A DNA stretch of 51,860 nucleotides. Origin: a candidate division WOR-3 bacterium. GTDB taxonomy: Bacteria; Hydrothermota; UBA3073; JACQXS01. The translations under genes were made by a program, and so were the position numbers. Of the stretch, positions 32,026 through 51,860 are shown piece after piece. Each line of letters starts with the position of its first letter. Positions within the stretch are counted from its first letter, which is position 1. The notes under the pieces were generated by a model, which was not told where the DNA came from, searched no databases, and saw nothing but the letters and a program-made list of their open reading frames with translations. The stretch is taken from positions 1 to 51,860 of the forward strand of contig JAGMCN010000046.1 of NCBI GenBank assembly GCA_023129235.1. The letters run 5' to 3'.

Positions 32026-32967
32026 ATGGCTAAGATTAGATATAATTTGGACTACTGGGAAATTCTTTTAAAGCAGAATTCTAAGACAGCTCAAGAAATT
32101 TGTGAATTGAGGTGGAGTTTTGTAGCCTGTGTTGCTCCTCTTATTATTTTAGATTATGGCTGTGGTCCTGGTTGGTTTAGAGCTTTTCGGCCGACTGGAG
32201 TAGAGGTGGATACATATGATATTGCTCCTTGGCCCCAGACCGGAATTCTTCATGATCACTATGATTTGATTACATTCTGGGATGTGTTTGAGCATATTCG
32301 AGATTTAGATAGTTTGATTCCTTTATTTGGAAAGGCTAGAAATATCGCGATGACTATTCCTATTTTACCTAAAGGAAAAAAACTAAAAGAATGGAAACAT
32401 TATAAGCCAGGGGAACATTTCCATTACTTTTCAAAAGATTCGATTGTGAGTGTTATGGATCAATATGGCTTTAAAAAAGTTAAGGAGGGTTGGCCCGAGG
32501 TAGATTGTGGTATTCGTGAGAATATTTATTCTATTTTGTTTCAAGCTAAAAAAAAGACGGTTGTTTTTACAAACGGAGTATTTGATCTGATTCATCCTGG
32601 CCATCTCTATATTTTAGAGAAGGCAAAAGCTTTAGGAGATAAACTAATCGTAGGATTAGACTCAGATCGAAATGTTCAGAGGTTAGATAAGAAACCAAAA
32701 CGTCCAGTCAATAATCAAGAAATCAGAAAGAAAGTAGTGGAGGCTCTACAATGGGTAGATGAAGTAAGAGTCTTTGACGATCATAATGAATTAAAAACTA
32801 TGTTAAGAGAGATCCAACCAGATTTTATGGTGAAAGGTGGAGATTATAGAAAGGAGCAAATAGTTGGAGCTAAGATTGTAGAAGATCTTGGAGGTCAGAT
32901 TGTGATTATTCCTTATCTCGAAGGTAAATCAACAACTAGTTTAATTAATCAAATTCGTGGACTATGA
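32026..32967 (+). CDS. hldC: bifunctional protein: class I SAM methyltransferase-like N-domain + D-beta-D-heptose 1-phosphate adenylyltransferase (HldE domain II / HldC type)
   Basis: The N-terminal part has LDYGCGPGW (SAM motif I) and FWDVFEHI. The C-terminal part, VVFTNGVFDLIHPGHLYILEKAKALGDKLIVGLDSD...RPVNNQEIR...PDFMVKGGDY...GKSTTSLINQI, aligns block for block with E. coli HldE domain II (MTNGVFDILHAGHVSYL...RPVN...PDLLVKGGDY...STTNII). Confidence 0.85.
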   Translation: MAKIRYNLDYWEILLKQNSKTAQEICELRWSFVACVAPLIILDYGCGPGWFRAFRPTGVEVDTYDIAPWPQTGILHDHYDLITFWDVFEHIRDLDSLIPLFGKARNIAMTIPILPKGKKLKEWKHYKPGEHFHYFSKDSIVSVMDQYGFKKVKEGWPEVDCGIRENIYSILFQAKKKTVVFTNGVFDLIHPGHLYILEKAKALGDKLIVGLDSDRNVQRLDKKPKRPVNNQEIRKKVVEALQWVDEVRVFDDHNELKTMLREIQPDFMVKGGDYRKEQIVGAKIVEDLGGQIVIIPYLEGKSTTSLINQIRGL

Positions 32968-33137
32968 AAAATTGGTTTAAGAAATTAAAATTATTCTTCA
33001 CTTGGAAATGTCCATATCGAAAGATTTGCCCCCAATACGATAAAAAAGGAACGTGTAAGGAAGGACCTTGGGTGTATTGTGGAAAATATTGGGAATTAAA
33101 AAAGAAAGAGAATGATAAAAATAGCACTGGTAGGTGA
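32964..33137 (+). CDS. possible small Cys-rich protein (57 aa), not in the track
   Basis: Its ATG overlaps the upstream TGA (ATGA). Translation: MKNWFKKLKLFFTWKCPYRKICPQYDKKGTCKEGPWVYCGKYWELKKKENDKNSTGR, with four Cys. It overlaps the kinase start by 26 nt. Confidence 0.3.
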   Translation: MKNWFKKLKLFFTWKCPYRKICPQYDKKGTCKEGPWVYCGKYWELKKKENDKNSTGR

Positions 33138-34008
33138 TTCCTTTACAGATAAATATATCTTTGGTGAGGTTCATAGATTATCTCCAGAATCTCCAGTACC
33201 ATTATTAGACGTTTCACGTGAAGAAATAAGAGGTGGAGGAGCACTTGACGTTGCTAACTCTCTTCATGGACTTGGAATCAACTTTACTTTATTTACAATC
33301 ACAGAATTATTAGATCAGTCTTATGAAATAGTTTCTCCTAAAAGATCTGTTCCTTTAGTCAAGACTCGTTTTGTAACTGAGAACCATCATCTGCTAAGAG
33401 TTGATTCACCAAATGTTTATCAACAGAAGGATTTAAATAGAATGAGATATCCAAAGAAGGAAGACTGGGATATTATAGTGTTTATTGACTATCTTAAAGG
33501 TATAATTAAAGAAGGAGTAGCAACTCTTGTAGATACAAAAAAGCAAGACCTATCAGTTTTTAAAGGATCAAGATATCTTAAAGTAAATCAAAAGGAATGG
33601 GAGAACGCTTTTAATAAAGATTTTCCAGAGGCTTTTGTTACAAGGGGAAAATATGGAATTGATTATTATTCGAATGGCAAGTTCATGATGAATCTTCGGA
33701 ATACAGCTAAAGAAGTGATTGATGTGACAGGAGCTGGAGATGTAGTAATGGCAACAATAATTTATTGTCTTGCTCATAATATAAATAATCCAGGAGATAT
33801 GATGAGGTTAGCAAACACAGCTGCTGGGATATCTATAAGCAAGTTTGGAACACCCATCGTAACTCTTAAAGAATTAAATGCAGAACTTAAAAAGAGTCAT
33901 CAAAAAGTGGGGAACGGAGATATGGATCTCAAACAACCCAAATCTTCCGTATTGCGGAAAACTCCTGTTGTTGAAGAAAGGCTATCAAAGTTCAGTTCAT
34001 TATCATAA
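33112..34008 (+). CDS. hldA: D-beta-D-heptose 7-phosphate kinase (PfkB family; HldE domain I / HldA type)
   Basis: IALVGDSFTDKYIFGEVHRLSPESPVPLL...GGGALDVANSL and the PfkB signature DVTGAGDVVMATI align with HldE domain I. Homology ends near ...FGTPIVTLKELNAEL (about nt 33890). The last 40 or so codons look non-conserved and overlap the next ORF. Confidence 0.8.
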   Translation: MIKIALVGDSFTDKYIFGEVHRLSPESPVPLLDVSREEIRGGGALDVANSLHGLGINFTLFTITELLDQSYEIVSPKRSVPLVKTRFVTENHHLLRVDSPNVYQQKDLNRMRYPKKEDWDIIVFIDYLKGIIKEGVATLVDTKKQDLSVFKGSRYLKVNQKEWENAFNKDFPEAFVTRGKYGIDYYSNGKFMMNLRNTAKEVIDVTGAGDVVMATIIYCLAHNINNPGDMMRLANTAAGISISKFGTPIVTLKELNAELKKSHQKVGNGDMDLKQPKSSVLRKTPVVEERLSKFSSLS

Positions 34009-34561
34009 AATTAAAACCGAGACTTTCTATATTTATCGGGGGGTAGTTCTAATGCAATTAGGTAGAACTAATTTAAAGATATATAAGCTTCCAAGCGGAG
34101 GATGGATAGAGGATTCCATAGTATTACGTCAAGGAGATTCACAACATATAACTCCCGGAATGGCTCATCGGTTTATAGGCTATACAGATTCGGAAATAAT
34201 TGAATTTTCGACTCACCATCAAGATAGCGATAGTTTTCGAGATCCTAATGACCTATCGGGAAAAGCTTTTATAAAAGAAGGATATGATTGGGATGGGGTA
34301 GCAGATTCAGGGATGGCTCTTCAGGAAGCAGCACCTATAATAACAGGAAGAAGCTTTGAGGAAGCACACAAGATTCTAATTGAGAATCATGTTATCTATT
34401 ATAATCCAGTAACTTATTTTAAAAAGAACGATAGGAATTCAGCTGAGTGGAAAGCCGAAATGATTAAAAGACTTGATATCGAAATCTTTTATGAAGATAA
34501 TTGTGAGCAAGTTAAAATCCTGGAAAAATTATGCCCAAAATGTCTGATCGTAAAAGTATAA
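33878..34561 (+). CDS. cupin-fold sugar isomerase/epimerase-like domain fused to a short HAD-like (DxDGV) phosphatase-like domain
   Basis: Cupin blocks: KKWGTEIWI...GKLLLLKKGYQSSVHYHKIKTETFYI..G........GDSQHITPGMAHRF. The C-terminal part has GYDWDGVADSG (HAD motif I, DxDx[TV]) and FYEDN (motif IV-like). Confidence 0.5.
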   Translation: MQNLKRVIKKWGTEIWISNNPNLPYCGKLLLLKKGYQSSVHYHKIKTETFYIYRGVVLMQLGRTNLKIYKLPSGGWIEDSIVLRQGDSQHITPGMAHRFIGYTDSEIIEFSTHHQDSDSFRDPNDLSGKAFIKEGYDWDGVADSGMALQEAAPIITGRSFEEAHKILIENHVIYYNPVTYFKKNDRNSAEWKAEMIKRLDIEIFYEDNCEQVKILEKLCPKCLIVKV

Positions 34562-35346
34562 GAAAATATATCTTGGTAACTGGAGGAGATGGTTTTATTG
34601 GAACCAATCTTATAAATGAATTAATGAAGGATAAAAATAATTTAGTTATTAATTTCACTGAGGATATTTGTGAAGGAATTAAAATAGATTGTCAGGTAGA
34701 TCTTATTTACCATATGGCGGCTAATACTGATACCACTTTCTCTGACGATGTTGAGATGTATAGAAATAATCTGATAGGATTTTTAAAGGTTTTAGATTTT
34801 GCCATTAAACATAATTGTAGACTTATCTACGCTTCAAGTGGAGCAATTTATGGGAATGTTGGAGAACCATTAAATGTTTATGGTCATTCTAAATTATTAT
34901 GTGATAAAATTGCTGAAAGATTTATTAATCGAATTCCGTTAGTGGGACTTAGGTTCTTTAATGTTTATGGTCCTTATGAACAAAAAAAAGAAAGGATGGC
35001 AAGTATGATTACTCAATGGAGAGAACAAATAGCCAAGGGTAAAAAACCAGGAATTTTTATTGGGGAATTTAAACGAGATTTCGTTTATGTTAAGGATATT
35101 ATACGTGCTTTGCTTCAAGCACAGAATTTAAAAAGCGGATTTTATGATGTTGGAACGGGCAAGGCAATTGATTTCAGAGATGTATTAGATATAGTGATTG
35201 AGGTTTTGGGAGTAAAAGTAGAACCAAAAAAGATTCCAAATCCTTATCTAGGAAAATATCAAACATTTACAAAGGCCGATATTAGCTGGGGTTTTAAACC
35301 CAAGTACCCAATAAGAAAAGGAATCAAAGATTATTTTAAAAATTAA
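34531..35346 (+). CDS. hldD: ADP-L-glycero-D-manno-heptose 6-epimerase-like SDR
   Basis: ILVTGGDGFIGTNL (Rossmann fold), the YGHSK catalytic YxxxK, and FFNVYGPYEQKKERMASMITQ...FKRDFVYVKDI...YDVGTGKAIDF parallel E. coli HldD ([20 protein letters not shown]...FKRDFVYVGDV...NLGTGRAESF). Confidence 0.8.
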   Translation: MPKMSDRKSIRKYILVTGGDGFIGTNLINELMKDKNNLVINFTEDICEGIKIDCQVDLIYHMAANTDTTFSDDVEMYRNNLIGFLKVLDFAIKHNCRLIYASSGAIYGNVGEPLNVYGHSKLLCDKIAERFINRIPLVGLRFFNVYGPYEQKKERMASMITQWREQIAKGKKPGIFIGEFKRDFVYVKDIIRALLQAQNLKSGFYDVGTGKAIDFRDVLDIVIEVLGVKVEPKKIPNPYLGKYQTFTKADISWGFKPKYPIRKGIKDYFKN

Positions 35347-35352
35347 AATAAT

Positions 35353-35640
35353 ATGCCTATTCAAACTAGCGTAGCTTTCTTTTTAATAGTAGCTCATTTC
35401 ATAGGAGACTTTAGTTTTCAGCCTTCTTGGTTATCAGCCGAGAAGAGAAAAGCAAAGCATGTTCTTCTAGGACATTGTATTATCTGTGCAGGTATAGTGG
35501 GAATAGTTTTAATATGGGCAGGTTTATTTGCTCCATGGAAACTATTTGCCTTGACTGGGATCCATTATATAATCGATTGGAAAAAACATAAGATTATAGA
35601 TAAACATGGATATAGTCCCCGGATAGGATTGGGTGATTAA
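35353..35640 (+). CDS. small integral membrane protein (DUF3307-like HxxxDFxxQ motif)
   Basis: Three hydrophobic segments and AHFIGDFSFQPSW. It is the only clearly membrane-embedded product in the island. Confidence 0.4.
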   Translation: MPIQTSVAFFLIVAHFIGDFSFQPSWLSAEKRKAKHVLLGHCIICAGIVGIVLIWAGLFAPWKLFALTGIHYIIDWKKHKIIDKHGYSPRIGLGD

Positions 35641-35683
35641 TTAAGTCATATAATATCAATTTTAATAATCGCTATAATTTAAT

Positions 35684-36721
35684 ATGTATCCTATTCATCA
35701 TATCGATTTAAAAACAACGTGGGATCAGTGGGTAAAAGCTCATCCCGAAATAATTCTTAAGAAACGAAAAATTATCTTAAGACAAGGACAATCACCAGGT
35801 GATATTTTAACTTTCACTAGGGTAGTAGGAGATCTTAAAGAAAGCTATCCTAATTATCAAATAGATGTTCGAACTCCATGTGCTGAAATCTGGGAGAACA
35901 ATCCAAGACTTACCCCTTTAAAAGAAGAAGATAAAGAAGTAGAGATTTTTACTATAGGATATGATGAGATTAATCAATCTGGTTGGGAAGGTCTTCATTT
36001 CTCGGATGCTTTTAGACATGATGTAGAAAAAAGATTAGGAATTCCTATTAAGAAAACAGGAATTAGACCAGAACTTTTTATTTCAGAAGAGGAAAGATCC
36101 TGGTGGAATCAGGTTCATTGTGAGTTTAAATGGGATGGTCCATTCTGGATTTTAAATGCAGGAAGAAAACCTGATAATGAACTTAAACAATATCATAGAT
36201 GGCAAGAAGTAGTAGATTTATTCAATGAGCGTTTCCAGAATCGTGTTAAACTCGTTCAGGTGGGTCATAAGGATCATATTCATCCCAAACTTAAGGGTGT
36301 ACTCAACTTAGTAGGAAAAACAGATACTAGACAGTTTATACGTTTAATGTATTGGGCTCATGGTTCTGTTGGTCCTATTTCTTTTCAGATGGTTCTATCG
36401 GCTGCGTTTGAACAGCCATCAGTTTGTATTGCAGGAGGAAAAGAAGGAGTAAGATGGCATGTATATCCTCATATGAGATGGTTAGATACAAATGGATGTA
36501 TTGATTGCTGTAAGTGGGATGGTTGTTGGCTAGGAGGAGAAGGAAAGAAATGTAAACATTTAATAGATAAAGTACCACTCTGTTTTAGATTGATCTCTCC
36601 AGAGCAAATAGTAGATGCTATAGAAATGTATTATAAGGGCGGTGCTCTTAAGATAACTGATACTTCTCAAAAACCAGTTATCCCTGGAAAAGGTGGTTGG
36701 TTTAAGAGAAGATTTAAATAA
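35684..36721 (+). CDS. GT9-family heptosyltransferase-like protein with C-terminal Cys cluster
   Basis: IILRQGQSPGDILTFTRVVGDLKESYPNYQIDV (compare GT9 ilvir.s.lGDvvl..p.l..Lk..yP.a.i). LNLVGKTDTRQFIRLMYWAHGSVGPISFQMVLSAAFEQPSVCIAGG (compare nlaGktsL.el.ali..a.l.vg.DSGp.HlAaA.g.P.v.lfG). Cys cluster CIDCCKWDGCWLGGEGKKCKH lies at about 36490..36555. Confidence 0.6.
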   Translation: MYPIHHIDLKTTWDQWVKAHPEIILKKRKIILRQGQSPGDILTFTRVVGDLKESYPNYQIDVRTPCAEIWENNPRLTPLKEEDKEVEIFTIGYDEINQSGWEGLHFSDAFRHDVEKRLGIPIKKTGIRPELFISEEERSWWNQVHCEFKWDGPFWILNAGRKPDNELKQYHRWQEVVDLFNERFQNRVKLVQVGHKDHIHPKLKGVLNLVGKTDTRQFIRLMYWAHGSVGPISFQMVLSAAFEQPSVCIAGGKEGVRWHVYPHMRWLDTNGCIDCCKWDGCWLGGEGKKCKHLIDKVPLCFRLISPEQIVDAIEMYYKGGALKITDTSQKPVIPGKGGWFKRRFK

Positions 36722-36724
36722 AAT

Positions 36725-37405
36725 ATGAAGTCCTTAATTATAGGAGCTGGGCAGGTTGGCAAAGCTCTATTTTATATTTTGAGAGAATCGCATGAAGTTG
36801 TACTTATGGATCGGAAGTTAACTTCCGAAAAGTTTGAAATTATCCATATTTGTTTTCCCTACTCCAATAAATTTGTATCTGAGGTTAAAAGATATAAAAA
36901 ACATTTTAAACCAAAATATCTGGTTATACATTCAACAGTACCATTAGGAACTTCGAAGAAATGTAACGCTTTCTTTTCACCAGTGAGAGGAATTCATCCA
37001 AGATTGAATGCGAGCTTATTAATTTTTATAAAATATTTAGCTCCTTACAGTGATTTTCTAAAGAAATATTTCGAGAAGACTGGAATGAAAATAGCAGAGT
37101 CAGGGAATCAGGATGATTTGGAAGCTCTAAAATTATGGTCGACCACTCAATATGGCCTTTCTATTGTGGTAGAAAAAGAGATTTATAAATATTGTAAGAA
37201 ACATAGGTTATCTTTTGATCTTGTTTACAAAGATGGGAACAAAACTTATAACAAAGGATATTCAGATTTTAAGATGCCTAACGTACTTCGTCCAATCTTA
37301 GAAGAGATGGAAGGTAAAATAGGTGGCCATTGTGTAATTCCAAATTGTAAACTTTTAGATTCAACGATAGCAAGGCTTATTTCTAGATATAATAAGAAAT
37401 TATGA
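36725..37405 (+). CDS. NAD(P)-binding Rossmann protein, nucleotide-sugar dehydrogenase N-domain-like
   Basis: MKSLIIGAGQVGKAL (GxGxxG) and IHICFPYS...LVIHSTVPLGTSKK resemble the UDP-glucose/GDP-mannose dehydrogenase N-terminal domain (STVPpGT). Confidence 0.45.
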   Translation: MKSLIIGAGQVGKALFYILRESHEVVLMDRKLTSEKFEIIHICFPYSNKFVSEVKRYKKHFKPKYLVIHSTVPLGTSKKCNAFFSPVRGIHPRLNASLLIFIKYLAPYSDFLKKYFEKTGMKIAESGNQDDLEALKLWSTTQYGLSIVVEKEIYKYCKKHRLSFDLVYKDGNKTYNKGYSDFKMPNVLRPILEEMEGKIGGHCVIPNCKLLDSTIARLISRYNKKL

Positions 37406-38193
37406 AGTCTATCTTTCATATTATCCAAACAGGAATAACAGGAAAAGCTGGTGATTTTAAAAGAACTAGATTTGGAAAACCTTGGGTTAAAGAACGAATA
37501 GAGTTATTCAAGAAGTATAATCTTAATAGTCTATTAAATCAGGAGGATCGAAATTTTATTCACTGGATATCTTGGTGTGAAGCAGATCAGGAAAATGAAG
37601 ACGTAATTAAATTAGGTCAACATCTTAAAAAAATAGAATATCCTTATGTGTTCACTTTTAAAAGACTTCCTTATATTGATACTCATGGAAATAATAGAGA
37701 TCTAAAAGAACGAAGGGAGAGAATGTTACCGCTTATTAAGAAATTCTATAAAGATCAGGCTTATGTATATTTTACTGTATTAGATTCAGACGATCTATAT
37801 AGAAAAGATGCTATTAAGATAATTAAACAGACAGACCCGAATGATAAGAAAGCTATGTTTTTCCAGATAGGATATGGTTATAATTTTGATTCTAAAGACC
37901 TTTGTATATGGGTAGCAAAATGGAGCCCACCTTTCTTTACCTTTATTTTTCCTTCAGAAACTTTCTGGGATGTTGATAAACATAGCGAATGGATTAGACA
38001 TTATCATGTACATCATGATGTAGATCGGATTTTTAAAGGAGTAAAATTACCTAGAGACATGTTTATTCAAGGAATTCATGGAGGTAATGCTACGACTCGT
38101 TGGACAAATGCTTACCGACAACGTATTATTATAGATGAAGATCAAAAAGCCGGGATCTTAAAGGATTTCGGAATTCATTATGCCAAAGAATAA
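37402..38193 (+). CDS. GT-A fold glycosyltransferase (GT2 / rhamnosyltransferase-like)
   Basis: DxD motif in FTVLDSDDLYRKDAI. N-terminal RFGKPWVKERIELFKKYNLNSLLNQEDRNFIHWI resembles the R..LF..y.LPSl..Qt...F.w block of the GT2-related family. Confidence 0.5.
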   Translation: MKSIFHIIQTGITGKAGDFKRTRFGKPWVKERIELFKKYNLNSLLNQEDRNFIHWISWCEADQENEDVIKLGQHLKKIEYPYVFTFKRLPYIDTHGNNRDLKERRERMLPLIKKFYKDQAYVYFTVLDSDDLYRKDAIKIIKQTDPNDKKAMFFQIGYGYNFDSKDLCIWVAKWSPPFFTFIFPSETFWDVDKHSEWIRHYHVHHDVDRIFKGVKLPRDMFIQGIHGGNATTRWTNAYRQRIIIDEDQKAGILKDFGIHYAKE

Positions 38194-43367: not shown

Positions 43368-43377
43368 GAGAGTAGAA

Positions 43378-43806: not shown

Positions 43807-43828
43807 TAGAGAGTTAACTCTCTATTTG
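43807..43828 (+). terminator. hairpin terminator candidate
   Basis: Perfect palindrome TAGAGAG-TTAA-CTCTCTA (43807..43824) followed by TTTG, directly after the stop codon. Confidence 0.45.
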
Positions 43829-43833
43829 AAAAT

Positions 43834-43889
43834 AAAGCAAGCTTAAATCACGCACTAGCTGTGAGTGCTTTTGGCTTGCTTTTTTTGTT
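43834..43889 (+). terminator. second, T-tailed terminator candidate
   Basis: AAAGCAAGC (43834..43842) pairs with GCTTGCTTT (43874..43882) across a structured 31-nt loop, followed by TTTTGTTT. Confidence 0.5.
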
Positions 43890-43890
43890 T

Positions 43891-44319: not shown

Positions 44320-47300
44320 ATGTTTGAACATATATTAAAAAAATTAGAATCATGGAAGCCAATACATCTGTGTTGGTGGTTTGAGAAACACGGAAAGCCT
44401 ATTCCTAAATATTTTATTGGACAGTCTTCCTCGAGTTCTTCATCTTCTTCTTCTTTTTCAAGCTCCTCTTCCTTTTCAACAGGGGCTTGGCTTGATGGAT
44501 GGAGATATCGAATTAAGATAACTATCCCAGACAACCGAAAAGAAGCAGATTTATCTTATTTTCCAGTAACTATATTTTTAAACGATAATGCTGGAATAAA
44601 CAGTGATGATGTCACCGCTATTTTTGATGAGGTGGGAAGTTCTTCTCAAAAAATTGCTCTTACTAAAGCTGATGGAACAACTCAGCTTTACTGTGAGGTA
44701 GAAAGCTGGAATAGTGGAACTGAAAAAGCTGTAATCCATGTTAGTAAATCAGATTGGAATTTAATTGATAGTTGCGATACGGTTTTTTATTTATATTTTG
44801 ATAATAGACAAGCAGATAATACGACTTATATAGGCGATGATCCAGATGATGCCGCGACTCATGCCGTATGGAATAGTGGTTATAAATTTGTTTCTCACAT
44901 GAAGGATTCTGGATCCTCTGCAATTAAGGATTCTACAGATAATAATAATGATGGGACAAAGAAAGCGGCAAACCAACCTAATCAAGTTGCTGGTAAAATA
45001 GCTAGAGCTCAAGATTTTGATCTTGCGAATGAGGAATATATAGATATGGATTCAACCACCGCACCAATGACAGGATTATTAGTAGAGGGCTGGATAAATC
45101 CTGAGAGTGATGGATCGGCTATGACTATAGCTGCAGATATGTATGATACGGCTGCATGGGCAGATTGTTCCTGGTACGTAATGAGAAATACAGATGATAA
45201 AATTTTTACTATTTCTTATAAAGCTGGTGGAGCCTTATGGAGTCTCGTATCAACTACTGCAATTACGGCTGCAGATGGTTGGAAACATAGTGCTGTAAGA
45301 TGGAATGGAAGTAATGTTTATATTTATTTAAACGGAGTTCAGGATGAAACTGCAGTTGCTTCAGGAGTGATGAGTGCTCATGCTTCAAGAGAATTTACGA
45401 TAGGAAGACAAAAAGATGCTGCTACTTATAAACAATATTATGATGGAATAATAGATGAATTTAGAGTTTCAAATACTGGAAGAAGTGCAGCTTGGGTAAA
45501 AGCTTCTTACTATGAAGGAGCAGATGACTTTGTTTATTTTTCTGCTGCGGAGGGAAATCCTTCATCATCATCATCTTCAAGTTCTTCACAAGAATCTATT
45601 TCTTCTTGCTCATCTTCATTTAGTTCTAGCAGTTCTAGCAGTTCTTCTTCAAGTAAATCTTCTTCTTCATCACTTAGTGCTGTTTGTGGAACTGGACTTT
45701 ATGAAAAACAACAAGATCGAAGTGTTTTACTAGCTAGTCTGTATGGAGTAAATTGGTTATGTCAAACTTTTACTCCTCAAGAAGCTCATTTAATTAAATG
45801 TGTAAGACTTGTTTTTGACAGAGTCGGGGCGGGTGATTTTACGATTACAGCTAGTATTAAAGCAGTAGATGGTAATCATAAACCAACAGGACCAGTTTTA
45901 TGTAGTGGAACGATGAGCACTGATGATATATCTGGAAATGATTGGTATACGATTAATTTAGGAAATGGAACTAATTTATCAGCAGCTACTGAGTATGCAA
46001 TTGAATTTAAATGCCCGGATGCTGATAATGATAATCGCCCAAGAGCATATGGAAGAGATTCTGATGTTTATGCAGGAGGAAAATGTTTTGTATCTCCAGA
46101 TAGCGGAGGAACATGGAATATTCAAACCTGGGATTTTGCCTTTGAGGATTGGGGTCAGGAAACTTCCTCAAGTAGTTCTTCTAGTTGCTCTAGTTCTTTT
46201 AGTTCATCTAGCTCATGTTCTTGTTCTTCATCAGCGAGTTGTGTTCATGATACCCAGCATGATAATTGTGTTTTAGATGACAATGATGTCATATCAATAG
46301 CTGACACTAAATGGTTAGCACAATCGTTTACTCCATCAATTTCCTATCATATTTGTCGCGTAAAAGTTAAACTTGAAAAAAATGGAACACCGCCAACTAC
46401 CACTACTTTTGGCATTCGGAACACAGATGGTAATGGTCATCCAACTGGAGCTGATTTATGTTCAGGGGTCTTAGGACCTGGGCCTGCAGCTGGATGGATA
46501 GAGATTATTTTAGGAGCTGGTTATGATCTTATTCAAGGTACAAAATATGCAGTAGTTGGAAGAGCTCCGTCTGGAGTAGGTGGTGATTGTTGGCGATGGA
46601 GATTTGATAATACAGCCGGAAGTTATACCAGAGGAAATGCACTGGATTCAGATGATTCGGGAGGAACCTGGGGTGACTTAGCTCAGGGTGATGAAGATTG
46701 GATGTTTGATTTATATGGAGATACTGGATCTTCATCTTCATCAAGTTCGAATTCAAGTTGTTCTAGTTCTTTTAGTAGTTCTTCTAGTAATAGTTCATTT
46801 AGTTCTAGTTCATGCTCAAGCAGTTTTTCATCTAGTTCATCTTCTAGTTCATCTTTTAGCAGTAGCTCTTGTTCTTCTAGTTTTTCTTCCTCTAGTTGCT
46901 CGAGCTCATTTAGCAGTAGTAGTTCATGTTCTAGTAGCTTTAGTTTCTCAAGTTGCTCTTCTTCATTTAGTAGTAGCTCTTGTAGTTCATCATTTAGTTC
47001 CAGTAGCAGTTCTTTTAGTTCATCTTCAAGCTGTAGCTCATCCTTTAGTAGCAGCTCATGTTCAAGCAGTTTTTGTTCTTCTAGTAGCTCATTAAGTTTT
47101 TCATCAAGTTGTTCTTGTAGCTCATCTTTTAGCTCTAGCTCTTCCAGCTTTAGCTCTTCTAGTTGCTCAAGCTCTTTCTCTTCTAGCTCCTGTAGCAGTA
47201 GCTTCAGTAGCTCAAGCTCAAGTTTTAGTAGTTCTTCTTCTTCAAGCTTTAGTTCTAGTAGTAGTAGCTTCTCATCTAGTTCAAGTTTCAGTTCTAGCTC

Positions 47301-48930
47301 CTCAAGTTTCTCTTCTTCTAGTAGCTGTTTAAGTTCTTCTTCAAGCTCCTGTTCATCATCGTTTAGCTCATCCTCAAGCTGTAGTAGTTTTAGCAGTTCA
47401 TCCTGTAGCTCGTCTTTCAGTAGCTCTTCATGTAGTAGTTCATTTAGTTCTTCAAGTTCTTCAAGTTCATTTTCTTCTAGCTCCTACAGTAGTTGTAGTA
47501 GTTCTAGTAGTCTTAGTCTTTCATCCTCATCAAGTTCAAGTTGCTCATCATCTTTTAGCTCTTCTAGTTGTAGTTCCTCATTTAGTAGTAGCTCAAGCTC
47601 AAACTCTTTCAGTAGCAGCAGTTCAAGTTCATCTTTTAGCTCAAGCTCAAGTAGCTTTTCAAATTCAAGTAGCGAATCAAATAGTAGTTCAAGTTCATCA
47701 ATAAGTATAAGCTCATCAAGTAGTAGTGAATCAAAGAGCTCATCATCAAGTTCTAAATCAATATCAAGTAGCTCAAGCTCTCAATCAACAAGTATTTCCA
47801 GTTCCTCAAGTTGTTCAAGTTCTTTCAGTTCAAGTTCGGAATCAATTTCGACTTCAAGTAGTTCATCATCACAATCAATTTCCTCCAGTAGCAGTTCTGA
47901 ATCAACAAGTTTAAGCTCTAGTAGCTCAAGCCAAAGTTTAAGCAGTTCTAGTTCTTCGGAAAGTATTTCAACTTCAATTTCTTCTAGTAGTAGCTCGTTT
48001 AGCTTTAGCTCAAGCTCGAGTAGCTTTAGTTCTAGTTCAAGCTCCTCAAGTTTAAGTTCAAGCTCAAGTTCTGAAAGTACTTCATTAAGTAGCAGTTCTG
48101 AATCAATTTCAAGTTCTTCATCTTCTGAGAGCATTTCATCAAGTTCTAGTTCATCTTATAGTTCAGAGTCCATGAGCTTAAGTAGCTCTTCGGAATCCCA
48201 AAGCTCATCAAGCTCATCTGAATCTATAAGCTGTAGTTCATCAAGCGAATCGATATCAAATAGTTCAAGTTCTCAATCGATAAGTAATTCTAGTTCATCT
48301 AGTAGTTCTAGTTCTTTAAGCTCAAGCTCAGAATCAACCTCGATCTCTAGTAGTTCTTGTTCATCATCAATCTCATCTAGTAGTAACTCAGAGTCACTAA
48401 GTTCTAGTTCTAGTAGTCAAAGTGAGAGCTTCAGCAGTAGCTGTTCTTCAAGCTGTAGTTCAGAATCAATAAGTAAAAGTAGCTCCTCTAGCAGTTCCGA
48501 ATCCGAAAGCTTAAGTAGCTCTTCGAGTAGTTCTCAGTCAATTTCAAGTTGCTCTAGTAGTTCAGGATATCCTACTTCATGGTGCATAGCTTGGGGAGAA
48601 CAGAACCCAGGAGCGGGTCATACTCCCGAGGGATGGTCAACTTGGTCAGATGGAACAGGTGGAAATCCCACCATTTTAGGAGATCCAGATTGGGGACAAT
48701 TACAGTTAGTATTAAATGAAGTTGCTAATAGTCCAATACATCATTTTGGATCTTTAAATTCGTCGGTCACTGTAGTTTCAAATATTAATGTAGGATCTGT
48801 AGAAGTTTATTATCGTCAGTCAGCCACGGCATTTGGACAGGATGATTTGGCTCCAGCTTGGGTATTAAAAATTACAGGGACTATTCATTTAAATCAATCT
48901 TATCGGCAGATAAGATTAAAAGGAGCATAA
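44320..48930 (+). CDS. fibre/adhesin-like protein 1: N-terminal anchor, DUF2341-like and LamG (concanavalin-like lectin) domains, two ~155-aa beta modules, 612-aa Ser-rich tract, C-terminal domain
   Basis: DGWRYRIKITIPDN...LSYFPVTIFLND...FYLYFDN fits the DUF2341 pattern. KDSTDNNNDGT...LLVEGWINPE...WKHSAVRWNGSNVYIYLNG...YDGIIDEFRVSN fits LamG/Laminin_G_3. Ser linkers lie at about 44425..44480, 45560..45680 and 46161..46239. Confidence 0.8.
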   Translation: MFEHILKKLESWKPIHLCWWFEKHGKPIPKYFIGQSSSSSSSSSSFSSSSSFSTGAWLDGWRYRIKITIPDNRKEADLSYFPVTIFLNDNAGINSDDVTAIFDEVGSSSQKIALTKADGTTQLYCEVESWNSGTEKAVIHVSKSDWNLIDSCDTVFYLYFDNRQADNTTYIGDDPDDAATHAVWNSGYKFVSHMKDSGSSAIKDSTDNNNDGTKKAANQPNQVAGKIARAQDFDLANEEYIDMDSTTAPMTGLLVEGWINPESDGSAMTIAADMYDTAAWADCSWYVMRNTDDKIFTISYKAGGALWSLVSTTAITAADGWKHSAVRWNGSNVYIYLNGVQDETAVASGVMSAHASREFTIGRQKDAATYKQYYDGIIDEFRVSNTGRSAAWVKASYYEGADDFVYFSAAEGNPSSSSSSSSSQESISSCSSSFSSSSSSSSSSSKSSSSSLSAVCGTGLYEKQQDRSVLLASLYGVNWLCQTFTPQEAHLIKCVRLVFDRVGAGDFTITASIKAVDGNHKPTGPVLCSGTMSTDDISGNDWYTINLGNGTNLSAATEYAIEFKCPDADNDNRPRAYGRDSDVYAGGKCFVSPDSGGTWNIQTWDFAFEDWGQETSSSSSSSCSSSFSSSSSCSCSSSASCVHDTQHDNCVLDDNDVISIADTKWLAQSFTPSISYHICRVKVKLEKNGTPPTTTTFGIRNTDGNGHPTGADLCSGVLGPGPAAGWIEIILGAGYDLIQGTKYAVVGRAPSGVGGDCWRWRFDNTAGSYTRGNALDSDDSGGTWGDLAQGDEDWMFDLYGDTGSSSSSSSNSSCSSSFSSSSSNSSFSSSSCSSSFSSSSSSSSSFSSSSCSSSFSSSSCSSSFSSSSSCSSSFSFSSCSSSFSSSSCSSSFSSSSSSFSSSSSCSSSFSSSSCSSSFCSSSSSLSFSSSCSCSSSFSSSSSSFSSSSCSSSFSSSSCSSSFSSSSSSFSSSSSSSFSSSSSSFSSSSSFSSSSSSFSSSSSCLSSSSSSCSSSFSSSSSCSSFSSSSCSSSFSSSSCSSSFSSSSSSSSFSSSSYSSCSSSSSLSLSSSSSSSCSSSFSSSSCSSSFSSSSSSNSFSSSSSSSSFSSSSSSFSNSSSESNSSSSSSISISSSSSSESKSSSSSSKSISSSSSSQSTSISSSSSCSSSFSSSSESISTSSSSSSQSISSSSSSESTSLSSSSSSQSLSSSSSSESISTSISSSSSSFSFSSSSSSFSSSSSSSSLSSSSSSESTSLSSSSESISSSSSSESISSSSSSSYSSESMSLSSSSESQSSSSSSESISCSSSSESISNSSSSQSISNSSSSSSSSSLSSSSESTSISSSSCSSSISSSSNSESLSSSSSSQSESFSSSCSSSCSSESISKSSSSSSSESESLSSSSSSSQSISSCSSSSGYPTSWCIAWGEQNPGAGHTPEGWSTWSDGTGGNPTILGDPDWGQLQLVLNEVANSPIHHFGSLNSSVTVVSNINVGSVEVYYRQSATAFGQDDLAPAWVLKITGTIHLNQSYRQIRLKGA
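45685..46160 (+). repeat. fibre module copy A1 (~155 aa; ..W.CQTFTP....H...CVRL...R.G.G.FTIT.SIKAVDGNH.PTG..LCSG..)
   Basis: Aligns along its full length with 49063..49541 in the second fibre gene. Confidence 0.7.
46240..46722 (+). repeat. fibre module copy B1 (CVHDTQHDNC...WLAQSFTPS...IRNTDGNGHPTG...DLYGD)
   Basis: Aligns with 51378..51860 in the second fibre gene. The last 132 nt are identical. Confidence 0.8.
46591..46722 (+). repeat. 132-nt exact direct repeat, copy 1
   Basis: Identical by eye to 51729..51860. One T/C mismatch lies immediately upstream (46590 vs 51728). Further upstream the two copies are clearly diverged. Confidence 0.85.
46729..48564 (+). repeat. 612-codon serine-dominated low-complexity tract
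   Basis: In frame within fibre 1. The first ~310 codons use almost only S/C/F (SSCSSSFSSSS-type periodicity). After about nt 47660 the pattern switches to S/E/I/Q/T/L (SSSSSESISSSSSSQSTS type). Ser codons alternate between AGY and TCN. Confidence 0.9.
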
Positions 48931-48932
48931 AT

Positions 48933-51860
48933 ATGTTAGACAGATTTAGAAAATTTATAAGAGAGTGGAAACCAATACATCTCTGTTGGTGGTACCAAAA
49001 GAAGGGAAAGCAAATCCCAAGGTATTTTATTGGACAGTCTAGCTCATCTTCTTCAAGCGGTCCTTGTGGAGGAGCTACTCTTTATGAACATCAGAATACA
49101 GTTTGGAATGAAGTACTATCTAGCATTTGGGGATCTGCTTGGTGCTGTCAGACCTTCACTCCTTCGATAGCTCATACTGTTACTTGTGTAAGATTAGCTC
49201 TTGATAGAATAGGAATCGGTAATTTTACTATCACAGTTAGCATTAAAGCAGTGGATGGAAATCATCATCCGACTGGAGTTGCCTTATGTTCCGGAACTAT
49301 ATCTACAAATAATTTAGGAGACCAATGGGATGAAATTTCAATGGGAGCAGGGGCTAACTTATCTGCTTCTACCGAATATGCAATCGAAGTTAAATGCCCA
49401 GATGCTACTGATGGTAATCAAGCGAGAGGATATGGAGATTCAACAGGAGACTACGCTGGTGGTTATGGCCAGTGGTCAAATGATAGCGGTGATACATGGA
49501 ATGATACAGTTTGGGATTATGCTTTTGAAGAGTATGGTGATACGTCTTCGAGTTCAAGTTCATGTTCATCTTCTTTTTCTTCAAGTTCTTCCAGCTTTAG
49601 TAGTTCTTCTAGCTCAGAATCTAGTCAAAGTAGCAGTTCAAGTTCCGAACAGTGTTTTGATTATACAAAATTTGAAAATCATACGACGCCTGATAATTCT
49701 AACTTTACCATTGGAGGTAATATTCAAATTGCACAAACATTTACACCTTCAATAAGTCATGTAATAAACTGTGTAAATGTAAAGATTGGAACCGAAGGAA
49801 CTCCGGTTGGAAATTTAGATGTTCAGATTCAAGATACTGATGGAGCTGGTAAACCAAATGGGAATGTTTTAGCTTCTGCTTCTATTACTGTAGCTAGTAT
49901 AGTAGCACATGAGTGGCGAGGAATAGTTTTAAATAGCGGAAGTTTTTTATCAGCAGCTTCTAAATATGCATTAGTTTTGAAAGCACCAAATATGCCTGGA
50001 CAAATAGGAGATAGGGTGTTTTGGAAATCAGATAGTACAGAAGGTTATGCTGCAGGTCAAGCCTGTTTTACTAATGATGCAGGAGCCAATTGGGCTCTGG
50101 AATCTAGAGATTGTCTTTTTGAAGAATGGGGAAATCAGAGTTCTTCAAGTTCTTCAAGTTCTAGTTCAATCCTTAGTTGTTCATCTTCTTCATCTTCAGG
50201 AAGTTTTTCAAGCAGTTCATCATCGTCGGCAGTTCCTTGTCCTATTGATTGTGAACTTTGCTATGATTGTTACTTTGTTACAGTTCCCGAGTTCATTTGT
50301 GATTTTAATACATGTGGGGGTCAGGCTATTTTAGAAAGAAGCGGAAATTGTGAATGGGAAGATTTAGACGGAGGCGATCTTGGAAATATGATGGTCTTTC
50401 TATATTGTTCGGAAGGCTTTTGGATTTTAGAAATATGTTGTGACAGTATAATAAACACTTGTATTTATAAAAAGGCTCTAGTAGAAGAAGGGGAATGCCC
50501 CGAAGGTTGGTATGAATTTGATCTGGATGCTTCGAATTGTGGAGCAAATTGTCCAGCAGGTCCATTGCAATTAACAGGTGATGAATGTCCATCCTCTAGT
50601 TCAAGCTGTTCAAGTTTAAGCTACTCAAGCTCCAGTTCATGTAGTTCGTCATATTCATGGAGCTCGACATCTTCAAGTTTTTCTAGCTCTTCGAGTAGTC
50701 TGAGCAGCAGTAGTTCCTGCTCAAGTAGTATTAGTTCTAGCAGTTCTTCATCAGGTTGTATTTCATGTTCTTCATCTTCTTCAGCATCCTGTTGGACTTG
50801 TCCTTCAGTAGGTGCTTGTGAAGCTCAATGTAGCCCATGTTATAGTTTCGACTACCCTTTATCTTGGTGTGATGGAAATTATATTGGTGGAAATATAATT
50901 TTAGATAATCGTTATATAGGTTTTTGTTCTTGGTATGCTTGGGGAAAAGGAACTTATTGGAACACAGATGCAAGTATTATTTGTAATGCGAACTGGTGGA
51001 CTTTAACAGTTTCTCCAAGTATAAATCCAGATGCCAACTGTATTTATAAAAAATGTTGTGATGAAGAAGATGATTGCCCAGATGGAATTTATGCTTTAGA
51101 TCCTTGGCTTTCAACTTGTCCGGAAGGCTGCCCAAGTCAAACTATTGAAGTGAGTGAATCTTCATGTTTTTCCTCAAGCTCGAGTAGTAGTTCTTGTAGT
51201 TCTTCTTCCTATAGCTCGTCCAGCTCTTTTTCTAGCAGTTCTAATTCATCTTGTTCTTCATCTTCATACTCTAGTTCAAGCAGTCTCAGCCTGAGTAGCT
51301 CAAGCTCAATTTCACTTAGTAACAGTTTATCTAGTTCTAGTAGTGTTTCTTTCTCGTCTTCTAGCTCTTCGATAAGTTGTGTTTATGATACTCAACAGGA
51401 TCATTGTATTTTAGATGATAACGATGTGATTTCTATAGCAGGAACAAAATGGCTAGCTCAATCTTTTACACCGTCTGTTTCTTATAGAGTTTGTAGAGTA
51501 AAAGTAAAAGTTGATAAGAATGGAACTCCTCCAGCGGTTACTACTTTCGGAATTCGAAATACGGATGGGAATGGTCATCCTATAGGATCTGATTTATGTT
51601 CAGGAATTTTAGGTCCTGGACATGCAGCAGGCTGGATAGAAATTATTTTAGGCGCAGGCTATAGTCTTTCTCAAGATATAAAATATGCTTTAGTAGCTCG
51701 AGCTCCAAGTACAGATAGCGGTGATTGCTGGCGATGGAGATTTGATAATACAGCCGGAAGTTATACCAGAGGAAATGCACTGGATTCAGATGATTCGGGA
51801 GGAACCTGGGGTGACTTAGCTCAGGGTGATGAAGATTGGATGTTTGATTTATATGGAGAT
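48933..51860 (+). CDS. fibre/adhesin-like protein 2 (3'-partial; absent from the supplied ORF track)
   Basis: I translated ATG 48933 codon by codon to nt 51860: 976 codons with no stop. AGGAG lies 7 nt upstream. The N-terminus MLDRFRKFIREWKPIHLCWWYQKKGKQIPRYFIGQSSSSSSS is paralogous to the fibre 1 N-terminus. It contains three beta modules, Ser linkers and two Cys-rich modules. Confidence 0.85.
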   Translation, partial: MLDRFRKFIREWKPIHLCWWYQKKGKQIPRYFIGQSSSSSSSGPCGGATLYEHQNTVWNEVLSSIWGSAWCCQTFTPSIAHTVTCVRLALDRIGIGNFTITVSIKAVDGNHHPTGVALCSGTISTNNLGDQWDEISMGAGANLSASTEYAIEVKCPDATDGNQARGYGDSTGDYAGGYGQWSNDSGDTWNDTVWDYAFEEYGDTSSSSSSCSSSFSSSSSSFSSSSSSESSQSSSSSSEQCFDYTKFENHTTPDNSNFTIGGNIQIAQTFTPSISHVINCVNVKIGTEGTPVGNLDVQIQDTDGAGKPNGNVLASASITVASIVAHEWRGIVLNSGSFLSAASKYALVLKAPNMPGQIGDRVFWKSDSTEGYAAGQACFTNDAGANWALESRDCLFEEWGNQSSSSSSSSSSILSCSSSSSSGSFSSSSSSSAVPCPIDCELCYDCYFVTVPEFICDFNTCGGQAILERSGNCEWEDLDGGDLGNMMVFLYCSEGFWILEICCDSIINTCIYKKALVEEGECPEGWYEFDLDASNCGANCPAGPLQLTGDECPSSSSSCSSLSYSSSSSCSSSYSWSSTSSSFSSSSSSLSSSSSCSSSISSSSSSSGCISCSSSSSASCWTCPSVGACEAQCSPCYSFDYPLSWCDGNYIGGNIILDNRYIGFCSWYAWGKGTYWNTDASIICNANWWTLTVSPSINPDANCIYKKCCDEEDDCPDGIYALDPWLSTCPEGCPSQTIEVSESSCFSSSSSSSSCSSSSYSSSSSFSSSSNSSCSSSSYSSSSSLSLSSSSSISLSNSLSSSSSVSFSSSSSSISCVYDTQQDHCILDDNDVISIAGTKWLAQSFTPSVSYRVCRVKVKVDKNGTPPAVTTFGIRNTDGNGHPIGSDLCSGILGPGHAAGWIEIILGAGYSLSQDIKYALVARAPSTDSGDCWRWRFDNTAGSYTRGNALDSDDSGGTWGDLAQGDEDWMFDLYGD
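49063..49541 (+). repeat. fibre module copy A2
   Basis: ..AWCCQTFTPSIAHTVTCVRLALDRIGIGNFTITVSIKAVDGNHHPTGVALCSG...WDYAFEEYGD parallels copy A1. Confidence 0.7.
49653..50138 (+). repeat. fibre module copy B-variant
   Basis: CFDYTKFENH...IQIAQTFTPSISHVINCVNVKIG...IQDTDGAGKPNG...CLFEEWGNQ has the same block order as the A and B modules but is more diverged. Confidence 0.6.
50235..50591 (+). repeat. Cys-rich module copy 1 (~119 aa)
   Basis: PCPIDCELCYDC...CDFNTCGG...NCEWED...YCSEGFWILEICCDSIINTCIYKKALVEEGECPEGWYEFD...NCGANCPAGP...DECP. Confidence 0.65.
50790..51167 (+). repeat. Cys-rich module copy 2 (~126 aa)
   Basis: CWTCPSVGACEAQCSPCYSFD...WCDG...FCSWYAWG...IICNANWWTL...ANCIYKKCCDEEDDCPDGIYALD...TCPEGCPSQ...SSC. 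It shares the CIYKK...E..CP.G.Y..D...C..CP backbone with copy 1. Confidence 0.65.
51378..51860 (+). repeat. fibre module copy B2 (runs to the window edge)
   Basis: CVYDTQQDHCILDDNDVISIAGTKWLAQSFTPSVSYRVCRVKVKV...IRNTDGNGHPIG...DLYGD. Positions 51729..51860 are identical to 46591..46722. Confidence 0.8.

Follow-up and report, generated by a model that had tools for sequence, protein, structure and literature searches.

A candidate phage-encoded O-glycosylation island and the association of its GT9-fold transferase with poly-serine tracts

The stretch of DNA analysed here in its full length of 51,860 bp (the window; contig JAGMCN010000046.1) was found to be part of a tailed-phage genome. It contains an island of 14 co-oriented open reading frames (ORFs) on the plus strand, which are closely packed or overlapping and fill positions 32026–43343 (11.3 kb), and downstream of these lie two genes whose products carry very long serine (Ser) tracts. 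The island probably constitutes a self-contained cytoplasmic system of protein O-glycosylation which would act on the poly-Ser tracts of the two downstream proteins, these being predicted to lie on the virion surface. The central observation is that genes for GT9a, an island transferase with the fold of glycosyltransferase (GT) family 9, lie beside Ser-tract genes in many viral and bacterial loci. The features on which the argument turns are the following.

35684–36721, plus strand: GT9a, GT9-fold (GT-B) transferase and constant member of the gene cassette, assigned by AlphaFold2 (AF2) modelling and Foldseek
39097–39867, plus strand: GT9b, second GT9-fold transferase, 256 amino acids (aa), assigned by AF2 and Foldseek
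44320–48930, plus strand: Ser-tract protein 1, 1536 aa, 39% Ser, with tracts at residues 30–58, 412–458, 611–643 and 800–1420
48933–51860, plus strand: Ser-tract protein 2, truncated where the window and contig end (at least 976 aa), 23% Ser; four tracts

A profile scan of IMG/VR with GT9a gave 51 viral loci (L002–L052), in which an ORF with a Ser tract was sought within 10 kb; 80 viral loci (1.29 Mb) centred on HldD-like epimerase genes served as the control. Ser tracts of 50 aa or longer were found in 27 of the 51 GT9a loci compared with one of the 80 controls (54 residues; Fisher p = 7e-13), and tracts of 100 aa or longer in 20/51 compared with 0/80 (Fisher p = 4e-10), p-values which overstate the significance because the loci are phylogenetically related. 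The largest case comprised 1,669 tract residues in an ORF of 3,070 aa. The nearest Ser-tract ORF is usually 30–800 bp (<1 kb) from GT9a and on the same strand, typically with one methyltransferase gene between them. When GT9a was divided into clades at 50% identity, six of the eight were positive for Ser tracts, including unrelated contigs of 460, 84, and 71 kb, and some GT9a proteins are only 33–42% identical to that of the window. The globular parts of the Ser-tract proteins differ (beta-helix, NHL-like and BNR-like repeats, or small head-region proteins with a C-terminal Ser tail), and the Ser tract is the only feature common to these very different neighbours of GT9a.

A reverse control was provided by 16 viral loci with homologues (32–45% identity) of the module found in the window's Ser-tract proteins. 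None of the 16 has a Ser tract, and none has GT9a or GT9b by hidden Markov model (HMM) or BLAST search, so Ser tracts and GT9a are present together and absent together. The sequence-only reading of this DNA had pointed to the co-occurrence of the island and Ser-rich fibres in related phages as the observation to be made, and the viral counts, the clades, the bacterial loci described below and the 16 module loci all agree with it. The usual viral gene order is Methyltransf_23, GT9a, GT9b, and two GT8-type genes. Another arrangement, seen in L038, runs from a collagen-repeat protein and a Ser-tract protein through GT9a, GT4, GT2, Methyltransf_24 and an FkbM-type methyltransferase to HldD and a bifunctional HldE. 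The system is thus modular in composition, with GT9a constant, partner transferases that vary (GT8, GT4, GT2, and Mannosyl_trans3) and methyltransferases recurring as neighbours or fusions.

The association extends to bacteria. With one genome taken per GTDB species, at least 157 loci were obtained, 80 of which were used. The bacterial GT9a homologues are full-length and 36–42% identical, often lie on megabase contigs and occur in Acidobacteriota, Gemmatimonadota, Verrucomicrobiota, Planctomycetota, Paraburkholderia, Caballeronia, Pseudomonas japonica, and Chthoniobacter flavus. Thirteen of 31 bacterial Ser-tract ORFs are within 500 bp of GT9a and 27 of 31 within 3 kb, with a third-position G+C content that fits real genes. 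In Paraburkholderia phymatum (L174) a Ser-tract-bearing DUF6519 beta-helix protein is followed by GT9a, a fusion of GT9 with a methyltransferase and then a core protein of extracellular contractile injection systems (eCIS). In Caballeronia telluris (L151) GT9a is preceded by a Methyltransf_24 protein. The GT9a loci L174, L151, and L175 (Pseudomonas japonica) were noted for DUF6519, beta-helix and eCIS_core proteins, and proteins in which PPYPPF-type repeats are combined with Ser tracts lie nearby. Extracellular contractile injection systems may therefore carry glycosylated Ser-tract fibres. A bacterial cluster with kinase-like neighbours (c2) was left out of the evidence, as it was possibly chained by low-complexity Ser matches.

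Protein 1 was found to consist, in order, of a conserved N-terminal segment of 35 aa, a Ser tract, a ConA-like lectin domain (Laminin_G_3, residues 246–393), a Ser tract, two copies of a module with a Ser tract between them, a 621-aa tract and a C-terminal domain. Protein 2 has three copies of the module (~150 aa, matched by phrog_5986), which brings the total over both proteins to five, and two Cys-rich modules, all of them joined by Ser tracts. An N-terminal motif is common to the two proteins (22/36 residues identical), and these two are the only proteins of the window in which Ser tracts occur. All six Ser codons are intermixed in the tracts (AGT 145, TCA 122, TCT 91, AGC 79, TCC 22, and TCG 14), the longest TCN run being 5 codons, and Tandem Repeats Finder reported short weak repeats only. 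The mixed codons and the weakness of the repeats argue for selection acting on the tracts as protein and against an artefact of DNA slippage or repeats. The 621-aa tract (46.7–48.6 kb) also shows regularly spaced Cys and Phe residues (SSSSCSSSF), with 28 Cys and 38 Phe codons.

Two serine-rich fibre genes downstream of the island had been claimed from the sequence, with modules joined by Ser tracts, one of them 612 aa long. The joining of modules by tracts stands; the longest tract measures 621 aa by the criterion used here, and the name of fibre follows from the position of the genes. In one of the 16 module loci (L224) a tail protein whose gene comes after that of the tape measure protein has the same module as its N-terminal part, which supports a virion location for such modules.

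Models of GT9a and GT9b were built with AF2 on alignments of 30 sequences, with predicted local distance difference test (pLDDT) scores of 87.9 and 94.3, respectively, and were compared with the PDB by Foldseek. The top 31 matches of GT9a consisted of 3TOV (an uncharacterised GT9 protein; E 2e-11), TibC, WaaF, and WaaC only. TibC, the protein O-heptosyltransferase of ETEC, gave a TM-score of 0.62 (E 6e-11, root mean square deviation 4.7–5 Å) and 3TOV an equal one, compared with 0.53 for WaaF and 0.47–0.54 for WaaC. For GT9b the first 21 matches were all TibC chains, and the top 29 consisted of TibC, WaaC, WaaF, and 3TOV. Searches with both sequences against PDB chains gave nothing useful, a profile search reaching WaaF at E ~1, so the GT9 classification rests on the predicted structures. 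The models thereby uphold the earlier view of both proteins as GT9 heptosyltransferase-like. Sequence identity to these GT9 structures is 9–19%, a level at which a tree would carry little weight, and in the structural ranking, which is suggestive only, neither protein nests among the heptosyltransferases of the lipopolysaccharide (LPS) core, TibC ranking level with or above WaaF and WaaC.

The motif SPGD40 is invariant in 30 GT9a homologues and aligns with the 'VGD' of WaaF (1PSW). In GT9b the motif GLGD30 is invariant, and it was aligned to SPGD40 by hhalign (GT9b vs. GT9a, E 7e-5). This Gly-Asp motif presumably occupies the position of the catalytic loop containing Asp13 of WaaC and Asp110 of TibC, the equivalence to the catalytic Asp being positional only. 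GT9a also has a Cys cluster just before its last helix, with Cys281, Cys290, and Cys300 invariant and Cys275 present in at least 90% of sequences; residues 284–287 of the model, within this segment, have a pLDDT below 50. GT9b is without such a cluster. C-terminal Cys motifs may occur in other GT9 enzymes too, and the feature may not discriminate. The first Rossmann strand begins at residue 29 in GT9a, with short helices before it, and at residue 19 in GT9b, which leaves no N-terminal beta-barrel of the TibC type.

The remainder of the island, with the gene that follows it, is listed below; assignments were made with Pfam, NCBIfam and PHROGs.

32026–32967, plus strand: ORF1, Methyltransf_23 domain (residues 35–153) fused to an HldC/HldE-II-like domain (residues 173–311); phrog_7878
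33112–34008, plus strand: ORF2, heptose-7-phosphate kinase-like protein (HldA/HldE-I, PfkB fold); Pfam PfkB
33878–34561, plus strand: ORF3, cupin with a possible HAD-like C-terminal half; Cupin_2 and Lyx_isomer matches
34531–35346, plus strand: ORF4, ADP-heptose 6-epimerase-like short-chain dehydrogenase/reductase (HldD); Pfam Epimerase, 1e-34
35353–35640, plus strand: ORF5, 95-aa DUF3307 membrane protein; Pfam PF11750; phrog_2470 'membrane protein'
36725–37405, plus strand: ORF7, 226 aa, N-terminal Rossmann signature (weak 31-residue TrkA-N-type matches)
37402–38193, plus strand: possible GT-A transferase, weak Rhamno_transf match (3.5e-5 over 35 residues); homologue in L007
38180–39100, plus strand: GT8-type transferase (retaining GT-A), Glyco_transf_8 (3.7e-6); kept in the cassette of most close relatives
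39840–40766, plus strand: GT8-type paralogue with a DADM motif (DxD); BLASTP E 4e-12 against 38180–39100
40753–41874, plus strand: ORF12, radical S-adenosylmethionine (SAM) enzyme; Pfam Radical_SAM; TIGR04317, TIGR04084 and StsB matches, those to SPASM-type maturases being best
41867–42754, plus strand: ORF13, Gfo/Idh/MocA-type NAD(P) sugar oxidoreductase by Pfam; NCBIfam inositol/sugar 3-dehydrogenases
42747–43343, plus strand: ORF14, Methyltransf_24 SAM methyltransferase; Pfam 4.9e-25
43378–43806, plus strand: LAGLIDADG homing endonuclease between the island and the fibre genes; Pfam LAGLIDADG_1, 1.9e-5

Heptose is the likely donor sugar, as judged from the genes that accompany GT9a and from the fact that GT9 enzymes use ADP-heptose. 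ORF1 matched TIGR02199 (rfaE_dom_II) with 161.6 bits (cut-off 181.5, E 9.8e-48), ORF2 matched TIGR02198 (rfaE_dom_I) over residues 2–259 with 158.8 bits (cut-off 345, E 1.7e-46) and ORF4 matched TIGR02197 with 210.6 bits (cut-off 274.6, E 3e-62). HldA, HldC, and HldD are called divergent here, as their best matches are to the correct families and fall below the equivalog cut-offs. Hld genes adjoin GT9a not only in the window but also in L002–L010, L038 (HldE and HldD), L054, and L058, and an HldC-like gene alone accompanies it in several other loci. In a 92.7-kb relative (L233) GT9a is preceded by Methyltransf_23, a PfkB kinase, an epimerase, a transaldolase, a split transketolase, and a cupin. 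Transaldolase and transketolase make sedoheptulose-7-phosphate, the entry metabolite of the heptose pathway, and these pentose-phosphate genes (L233:7485–9284 and L234:881–2680) have apparently been recruited to feed it into heptose synthesis.

Neither an SIS-fold GmhA nor a confident HAD phosphatase GmhB was detected in the island with Pfam or NCBIfam. The cupin ORF3, an additional island gene which the earlier reading had not listed, may be a non-orthologous replacement for GmhA and perhaps, through its HAD-like tail, for GmhB as well. It is proposed as the isomerase because a cupin akin to mannose-6-phosphate isomerases would be chemically suited to the conversion of sedoheptulose-7-phosphate to manno-heptose. 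The proposal is supported by 17 unrelated viral heptose loci, 14 of which have a ~127-aa cupin homologue together with HldA, HldC, and HldD. ORF3 is matched by phrog_7851 on residues 2–121 and weakly by phrog_415 on residues 154–226, and it contains a DWDGV motif; a PDB sequence search with it was unproductive. The cupin of L233 has a weak MannoseP_isomer match. ORF3 overlaps the 3' end of ORF2 by 131 nt (33878–34008) in a different frame, and the overlap looks real since the cupin profile matches from residue 2. Alternatively it could stem from a frameshift or from misassembly, and in the public gene call the cupin begins 58 codons later.

Several other island genes recur in relatives. At least 15 other viral loci have Methyltransf_23 as a separate gene immediately upstream of GT9a, and in L024 the two are fused. 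The DUF3307 gene is retained between HldD and GT9a in L002 and L003, relatives keep the GT8 paralogue (39840–40766) at the cassette's 3' end, and a GFO_IDH_MocA gene is found downstream of GT9a in L233. Methyltransf_24 recurs in cassettes (three in L235, one in L038, and one in the Caballeronia locus L151) and in GT9b fusions. No counterpart of the radical SAM enzyme was seen in L002–L052, the other viral GT9a loci; as pure speculation, the enzyme might modify the Ser tract itself, by thioether or formylglycine chemistry, and not the sugar. A reading of the island as a defence system was dropped, as PADLOC yielded generic viperin-type radical SAM matches only. Island content varies strongly among relatives, and in L235 the region upstream of the cassette (1176–2108 and neighbours) has genes for a sulfatase-family protein, an ABC ATPase, a CobW-like GTPase, and an iron-sulphur protein. 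The LAGLIDADG gene is likely a selfish insertion outside the pathway. The same protein is found on two short separate contigs of the same study, and a similar gene in L218.

Most of what the sequence-only reading had said of the island was borne out: the block of 14 ORFs over 11.3 kb, the three heptose enzymes (best NCBIfam matches to the expected families, though divergent), and, by Pfam, the radical SAM enzyme, the Gfo/Idh/MocA oxidoreductase, and two methyltransferase domains. The same outcome was also reached for Wzx/Wzy/Wzz, a priming transferase, an ABC exporter, and a ligase domain, none of which was found by Pfam among the island ORFs, the sole membrane protein there being the DUF3307 product. 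Two of its claims stood in part. Of three supposed GT-A transferases two are GT8-type paralogues, both with a DADM motif, and the third has the short Rhamno_transf match alone; the dehydrogenase-like protein (ORF7) retains its N-terminal Rossmann signature and gave no Pfam or PHROG match.

Taken together, these data suggest the following scheme, in which we infer the acceptor, the donor, the order of steps, and the location on the virion. The cupin protein would isomerise sedoheptulose-7-phosphate, the HldA-like kinase would phosphorylate the resulting heptose-7-phosphate, and after dephosphorylation, for which either the HAD-like tail of ORF3 or an enzyme of the host could be responsible, the HldC-like domain would adenylylate and the HldD-like enzyme epimerise the sugar. 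Soluble GT9a, the proposed initiating transferase, would place the first sugar, most likely heptose, on Ser hydroxyls of the tracts, as TibC and Aah do on autotransporters. GT9b and the two GT8-type enzymes would lengthen the glycan, the GT8-type enzyme at 38180–39100 being proposed as the elongating enzyme, and the methyltransferases, the oxidoreductase, and the radical SAM enzyme would tailor it, so that the tracts would probably carry methylated heptose. As glycosylation would precede virion assembly and take place in the cytoplasm, no flippase, polymerase, ligase, or exporter would be needed. The product would be mucin-like, forming stiff, protease-resistant, glycan-covered stalks which space the lectin-like binding modules. 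The earlier proposal of a phage-made heptose donor and glycosylated Ser-rich fibres is thus supported by comparative evidence, namely the association of GT9a with tracts, the reverse control, and the Hld neighbours.

A number of observations weigh against this interpretation. Neither Ser-tract protein has a tail-fibre match in PHROGs. No significant Pfam match, PF01075 included, was obtained for GT9a or GT9b of the window, with only a 22-bit N-terminal RfaQ match. PF01075 is matched by 49 of 65 long representatives of the GT9a family and by two close homologues, part of these matches possibly coming from a fused second GT9 domain. In a weak alignment to WaaF (E ~1) GT9a has G-P-I-S at the donor-motif position where WaaF has N-D-S-G, a stretch which we take to be the conserved C-terminal sugar-binding motif of GT9 enzymes (D-S/T-G-x-x-H). 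Bacterial relatives have C-P-V-T and GT9b has A-S-G-P at the same position, none of these conforming to that motif, and with N-D-S-G replaced the donor of GT9a need not be ADP-heptose. About half of the viral GT9a loci have no Ser-tract ORF within 10 kb, some of them being short or ending inside the island. Many GT9a loci (L011–L027) are without an Hld kinase or epimerase and would depend on host ADP-heptose or on another donor. Conversely, a four-gene cassette (HldA, HldC, a ~127-aa cupin, and HldD) is repeated in 14–17 unrelated viral contigs among the control loci L053–L092, which are free of Ser tracts and, with the exceptions of L054 and L058, of GT9a within 10 kb. At least 15 viral loci thus have the heptose cassette with neither GT9a nor Ser tracts, which implies that the cassette serves other purposes too.

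The wider genome bears on the alternatives. An exact match of the GT9a protein was also found on a 94,673-bp metagenomic contig (ENA ERZ23498683, scaffold_64), and NCBI bins the GT9a-bearing contig as 'candidate division WOR-3 bacterium'. On the 94.7-kb contig the window starts inside the gene after the large terminase and stops at the contig end; position 51860 maps ~77 bases past the start of the ENA record, and a slightly different contig copy or circular permutation is possible. The sequence inspected comprised the window and, of the ~43 kb outside it, ~6 kb upstream (L135). Within the window a major head protein is encoded at 6784–7800 (phrog_9953), tail-like genes at 24–29 kb and a candidate lysin with peptidase and peptidoglycan-binding features at 29372–30493, so that the sugar island sits in the late region, 3' of the head, tail, and lysis genes and 5' of the fibre genes. 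In the relative L235 an SU10-type adaptor gene is immediately 5' of the cassette. Co-transcription of the island is suggested by its packing and common strand; a promoter and terminator scan of 29.5–49.4 kb gave nothing better than shuffled sequences. A megablast search of the island against 50,697 GenBank phage records returned zero matches.

Two further genes of the window were noted. A single ORF of 4793 aa (8355–22736, plus strand) directly follows the head genes; it is without Ser tracts, has a weak LysM match and is very large for a phage of ~95 kb. The gene 3' of the large terminase, in the position expected of the portal (301–3168, plus strand; in full L135:5759–9202), encodes a protein of 1147 aa with an ATP-dependent DNA ligase adenylation domain (Pfam 1.3e-9; phrog_114), for which a PDB sequence search was without match.

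It is unlikely that the island serves instead to remodel the host envelope, with the phage rebuilding or extending the LPS core to block superinfection or to reduce sticking to debris and with the Ser tracts acting as flexible linkers. WaaF and WaaC do appear among the structural matches, and automatic NCBI and JGI names of homologues read 'ADP-heptose--LPS heptosyltransferase'. The mixture of GT9 and GT8 enzymes also mirrors LPS core biosynthesis, where WaaC/F/Q (GT9) and WaaO/R/J-type GT8 enzymes of the waa locus build the inner and outer core, and the small DUF3307 membrane protein within the island could be read in the same way. However, WaaC and WaaF are no better structural matches than TibC, lipid-linked and export functions are absent among the island ORFs and the island lies in the late structural region. 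Envelope remodelling also leaves unexplained why GT9a stands beside Ser-tract proteins in unrelated phages and bacteria and why the fibre modules are free of tracts where GT9a is absent.

That other virion components (the capsid, the tail tube, or the 4793-aa protein) are the targets, or that the glycan is free or otherwise anchored, with the Ser tracts as unmodified co-inherited spacers, is judged quite improbable. The Ser tract is the one feature which the neighbours of GT9a have in common, the other proteins of the window show no obvious acceptor-rich region, and co-inheritance cannot explain an association seen in six of eight clades and in bacteria. On the other hand, the Ser tract of L029 and L052 forms a short tail at the C-terminus of a small protein encoded among head genes, so the class of targets would not be restricted to fibres, and in mycobacteriophages, as summarised in PMC12619734, capsid and tail-tube subunits bear glycans at their C-termini.

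Hypermodification of DNA, with heptose placed on 5-hydroxymethylcytosine (5hmC) to evade restriction, is highly improbable: a phage gene cluster that combines a HAD/APH enzyme with a cytidylyltransferase and a transferase of the GT-B type did make mono- and di-heptosyl-5hmC (bioRxiv 10.1101/2023.12.21.572611), PHROGs labels the MT24 family 'DNA methyltransferase' and ~37 kb of the genome lie outside the inspected sequence, but no cytosine methyltransferase, TET/JBP-type dioxygenase, or hydroxymethylase was found in the Pfam-annotated window, contig flank, and two relatives, GT9 structures are the best matches with T4 beta-glucosyltransferase absent from the 50 matches listed, the island is among late structural genes, and the Ser-tract association would be unexplained. 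Both DNA modification and LPS remodelling are therefore considered less likely than glycosylation of the Ser tracts.

Compared with known systems, the proposed one would work like a bacterial autotransporter heptosyltransferase (BAHT) and is organised like a serine-rich-repeat protein (SRRP) island, and it is a member of neither family. BAHTs of the TibC/Aah type are soluble cytoplasmic GT-B enzymes which transfer heptose from ADP-heptose onto many serines of the adhesin encoded by the adjacent gene, and TibC has a flattened N-terminal beta-barrel (residues 1–97) and an iron finger formed by Cys339, 342, 358, and 370 (residues 339–370 of 406; PMC4358343). The GT9-related GT-B fold is shared with BAHTs (TibC, Aah, and BimC), TibC being one of the best structural matches for each of the two window proteins, and GT9a and TibC each have a Cys cluster near the C-terminus, compared here by sequence position only. 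However, identity is 15–19%, the beta-barrel of TibC is lacking in GT9a and GT9b and the Cys spacing differs (C-x5-C-x8-C-x9-C in GT9a and C-x2-C-x15-C-x11-C in TibC). The acceptor would be a disordered homopolymeric Ser tract and not serines on a folded beta-helix, the substrates would be proteins of phage or eCIS-type particles and not autotransporters, and the glycan is probably extended and methylated where that of TibC is a mono-heptose. Enzymes of the TibC/Aah type also assemble into a dodecameric ring.

The SRRP islands (Fap1, GspB, PsrP, and SraP) likewise place a giant Ser-rich adhesin gene beside dedicated cytoplasmic transferases, with one constant initiating enzyme, variable elongating ones that include GT8, and glycosylation prior to export. 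There the initiator is the GT4 pair GtfA/GtfB, which adds GlcNAc, whereas here it would be a GT9-fold enzyme; GtfA was only a marginal Foldseek match of GT9b (E ~0.05–0.07), and the island ORFs gave no GT4, DUF1975, or Sec (SecA2/SecY2) matches. The tracts here are near-homopolymeric, in contrast to SASASAST-type dipeptide repeats, and the carrier is a virus. To our knowledge virion glycosylation by phage-encoded enzymes has been documented so far for a few mycobacteriophages, and we know of no heptose nucleotide-sugar pathway, GT9 enzyme, or kilobase-long Ser tract in those systems. As cited in PMC12619734, phage-encoded transferases decorate virion structural proteins there too, the difference being that the modification lies in short regions at the C-terminus of capsid and tail-tube subunits. 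Giant viruses (Mimivirus and chloroviruses), according to PMC9614988, encode both nucleotide-sugar synthesis and the transferases that coat their own particle, independently of the host. They resemble the present phage in having their own sugar supply and transferases, and differ in being eukaryotic viruses with other sugars and enzymes. The clusters that glycosylate 5hmC in DNA also combine a phage nucleotidyltransferase with a GT-B transferase and include heptose among their sugars; their acceptor is DNA, and they have cytosine methyltransferase and 5mYOX genes and T4 beta-GT-like enzymes, none of which were seen here. Full-text searches found no publication linking poly-serine phage proteins to GT9-type enzymes or heptose.

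The GT9a family is large. Close homologues numbered 355 for GT9a and 290 for GT9b, many on contigs of ~65–140 kb and several contigs with both, and some GT9b homologues are fused to Methyltransf_24. An exhaustive HMM search gave at least 905 representative GT9a clusters at E ≤ 1e-30, and tblastn of GT9a against the 50,697 GenBank phages detected no homologue. UniProt viral proteins of the same fold come nearly all from uncultured phages, with automatic names such as 'RfaF' or 'Aah/TibC'. The 65 long family members include fusions to Mannosyl_trans3, GT2, GT4, and many SAM methyltransferases. Among them six are fused to an Erv1/Alr sulfhydryl oxidase and one to a PLOD-type collagen glycosyltransferase domain, domains which we take to be associated with giant viruses, and two have inteins. 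Structural neighbours include proteins of Bodo saltans virus and Klosneuvirus, and the family may extend to giant viruses.

By a small measure we favour the view that GT9a represents a large uncharacterised family of cytoplasmic transferases dedicated to homopolymeric Ser tracts in phages, eCIS-like loci, and the chromosomes of many phyla. In particles that assemble in the cytoplasm, GT9a would serve together with variable extenders and methyltransferases to make mucin-like stalks on receptor-binding proteins, and some phages would encode the whole supply line from pentose-phosphate enzymes to ADP-heptose. If this is true, environmental phages possess a widespread and modular glycosylation system with a mechanistic twin in bacterial loci for injection particles, and a simple sequence rule, a poly-Ser tract beside a GT9a gene, would predict glycosylated proteins. 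It would also raise the question of what role is played by the many other phage-encoded ADP-heptose cassettes. The tracts would be a new class of acceptor for GT9/BAHT-type enzymes, and donor synthesis, initiating transferase, and a genetically encodable tag would together form a compact cytoplasmic toolbox for mucin-like polypeptides. For the phages themselves, glycosylation would explain the kilobase-long serine runs in fibre genes and would have a bearing on host range and on shielding from immunity and proteases.

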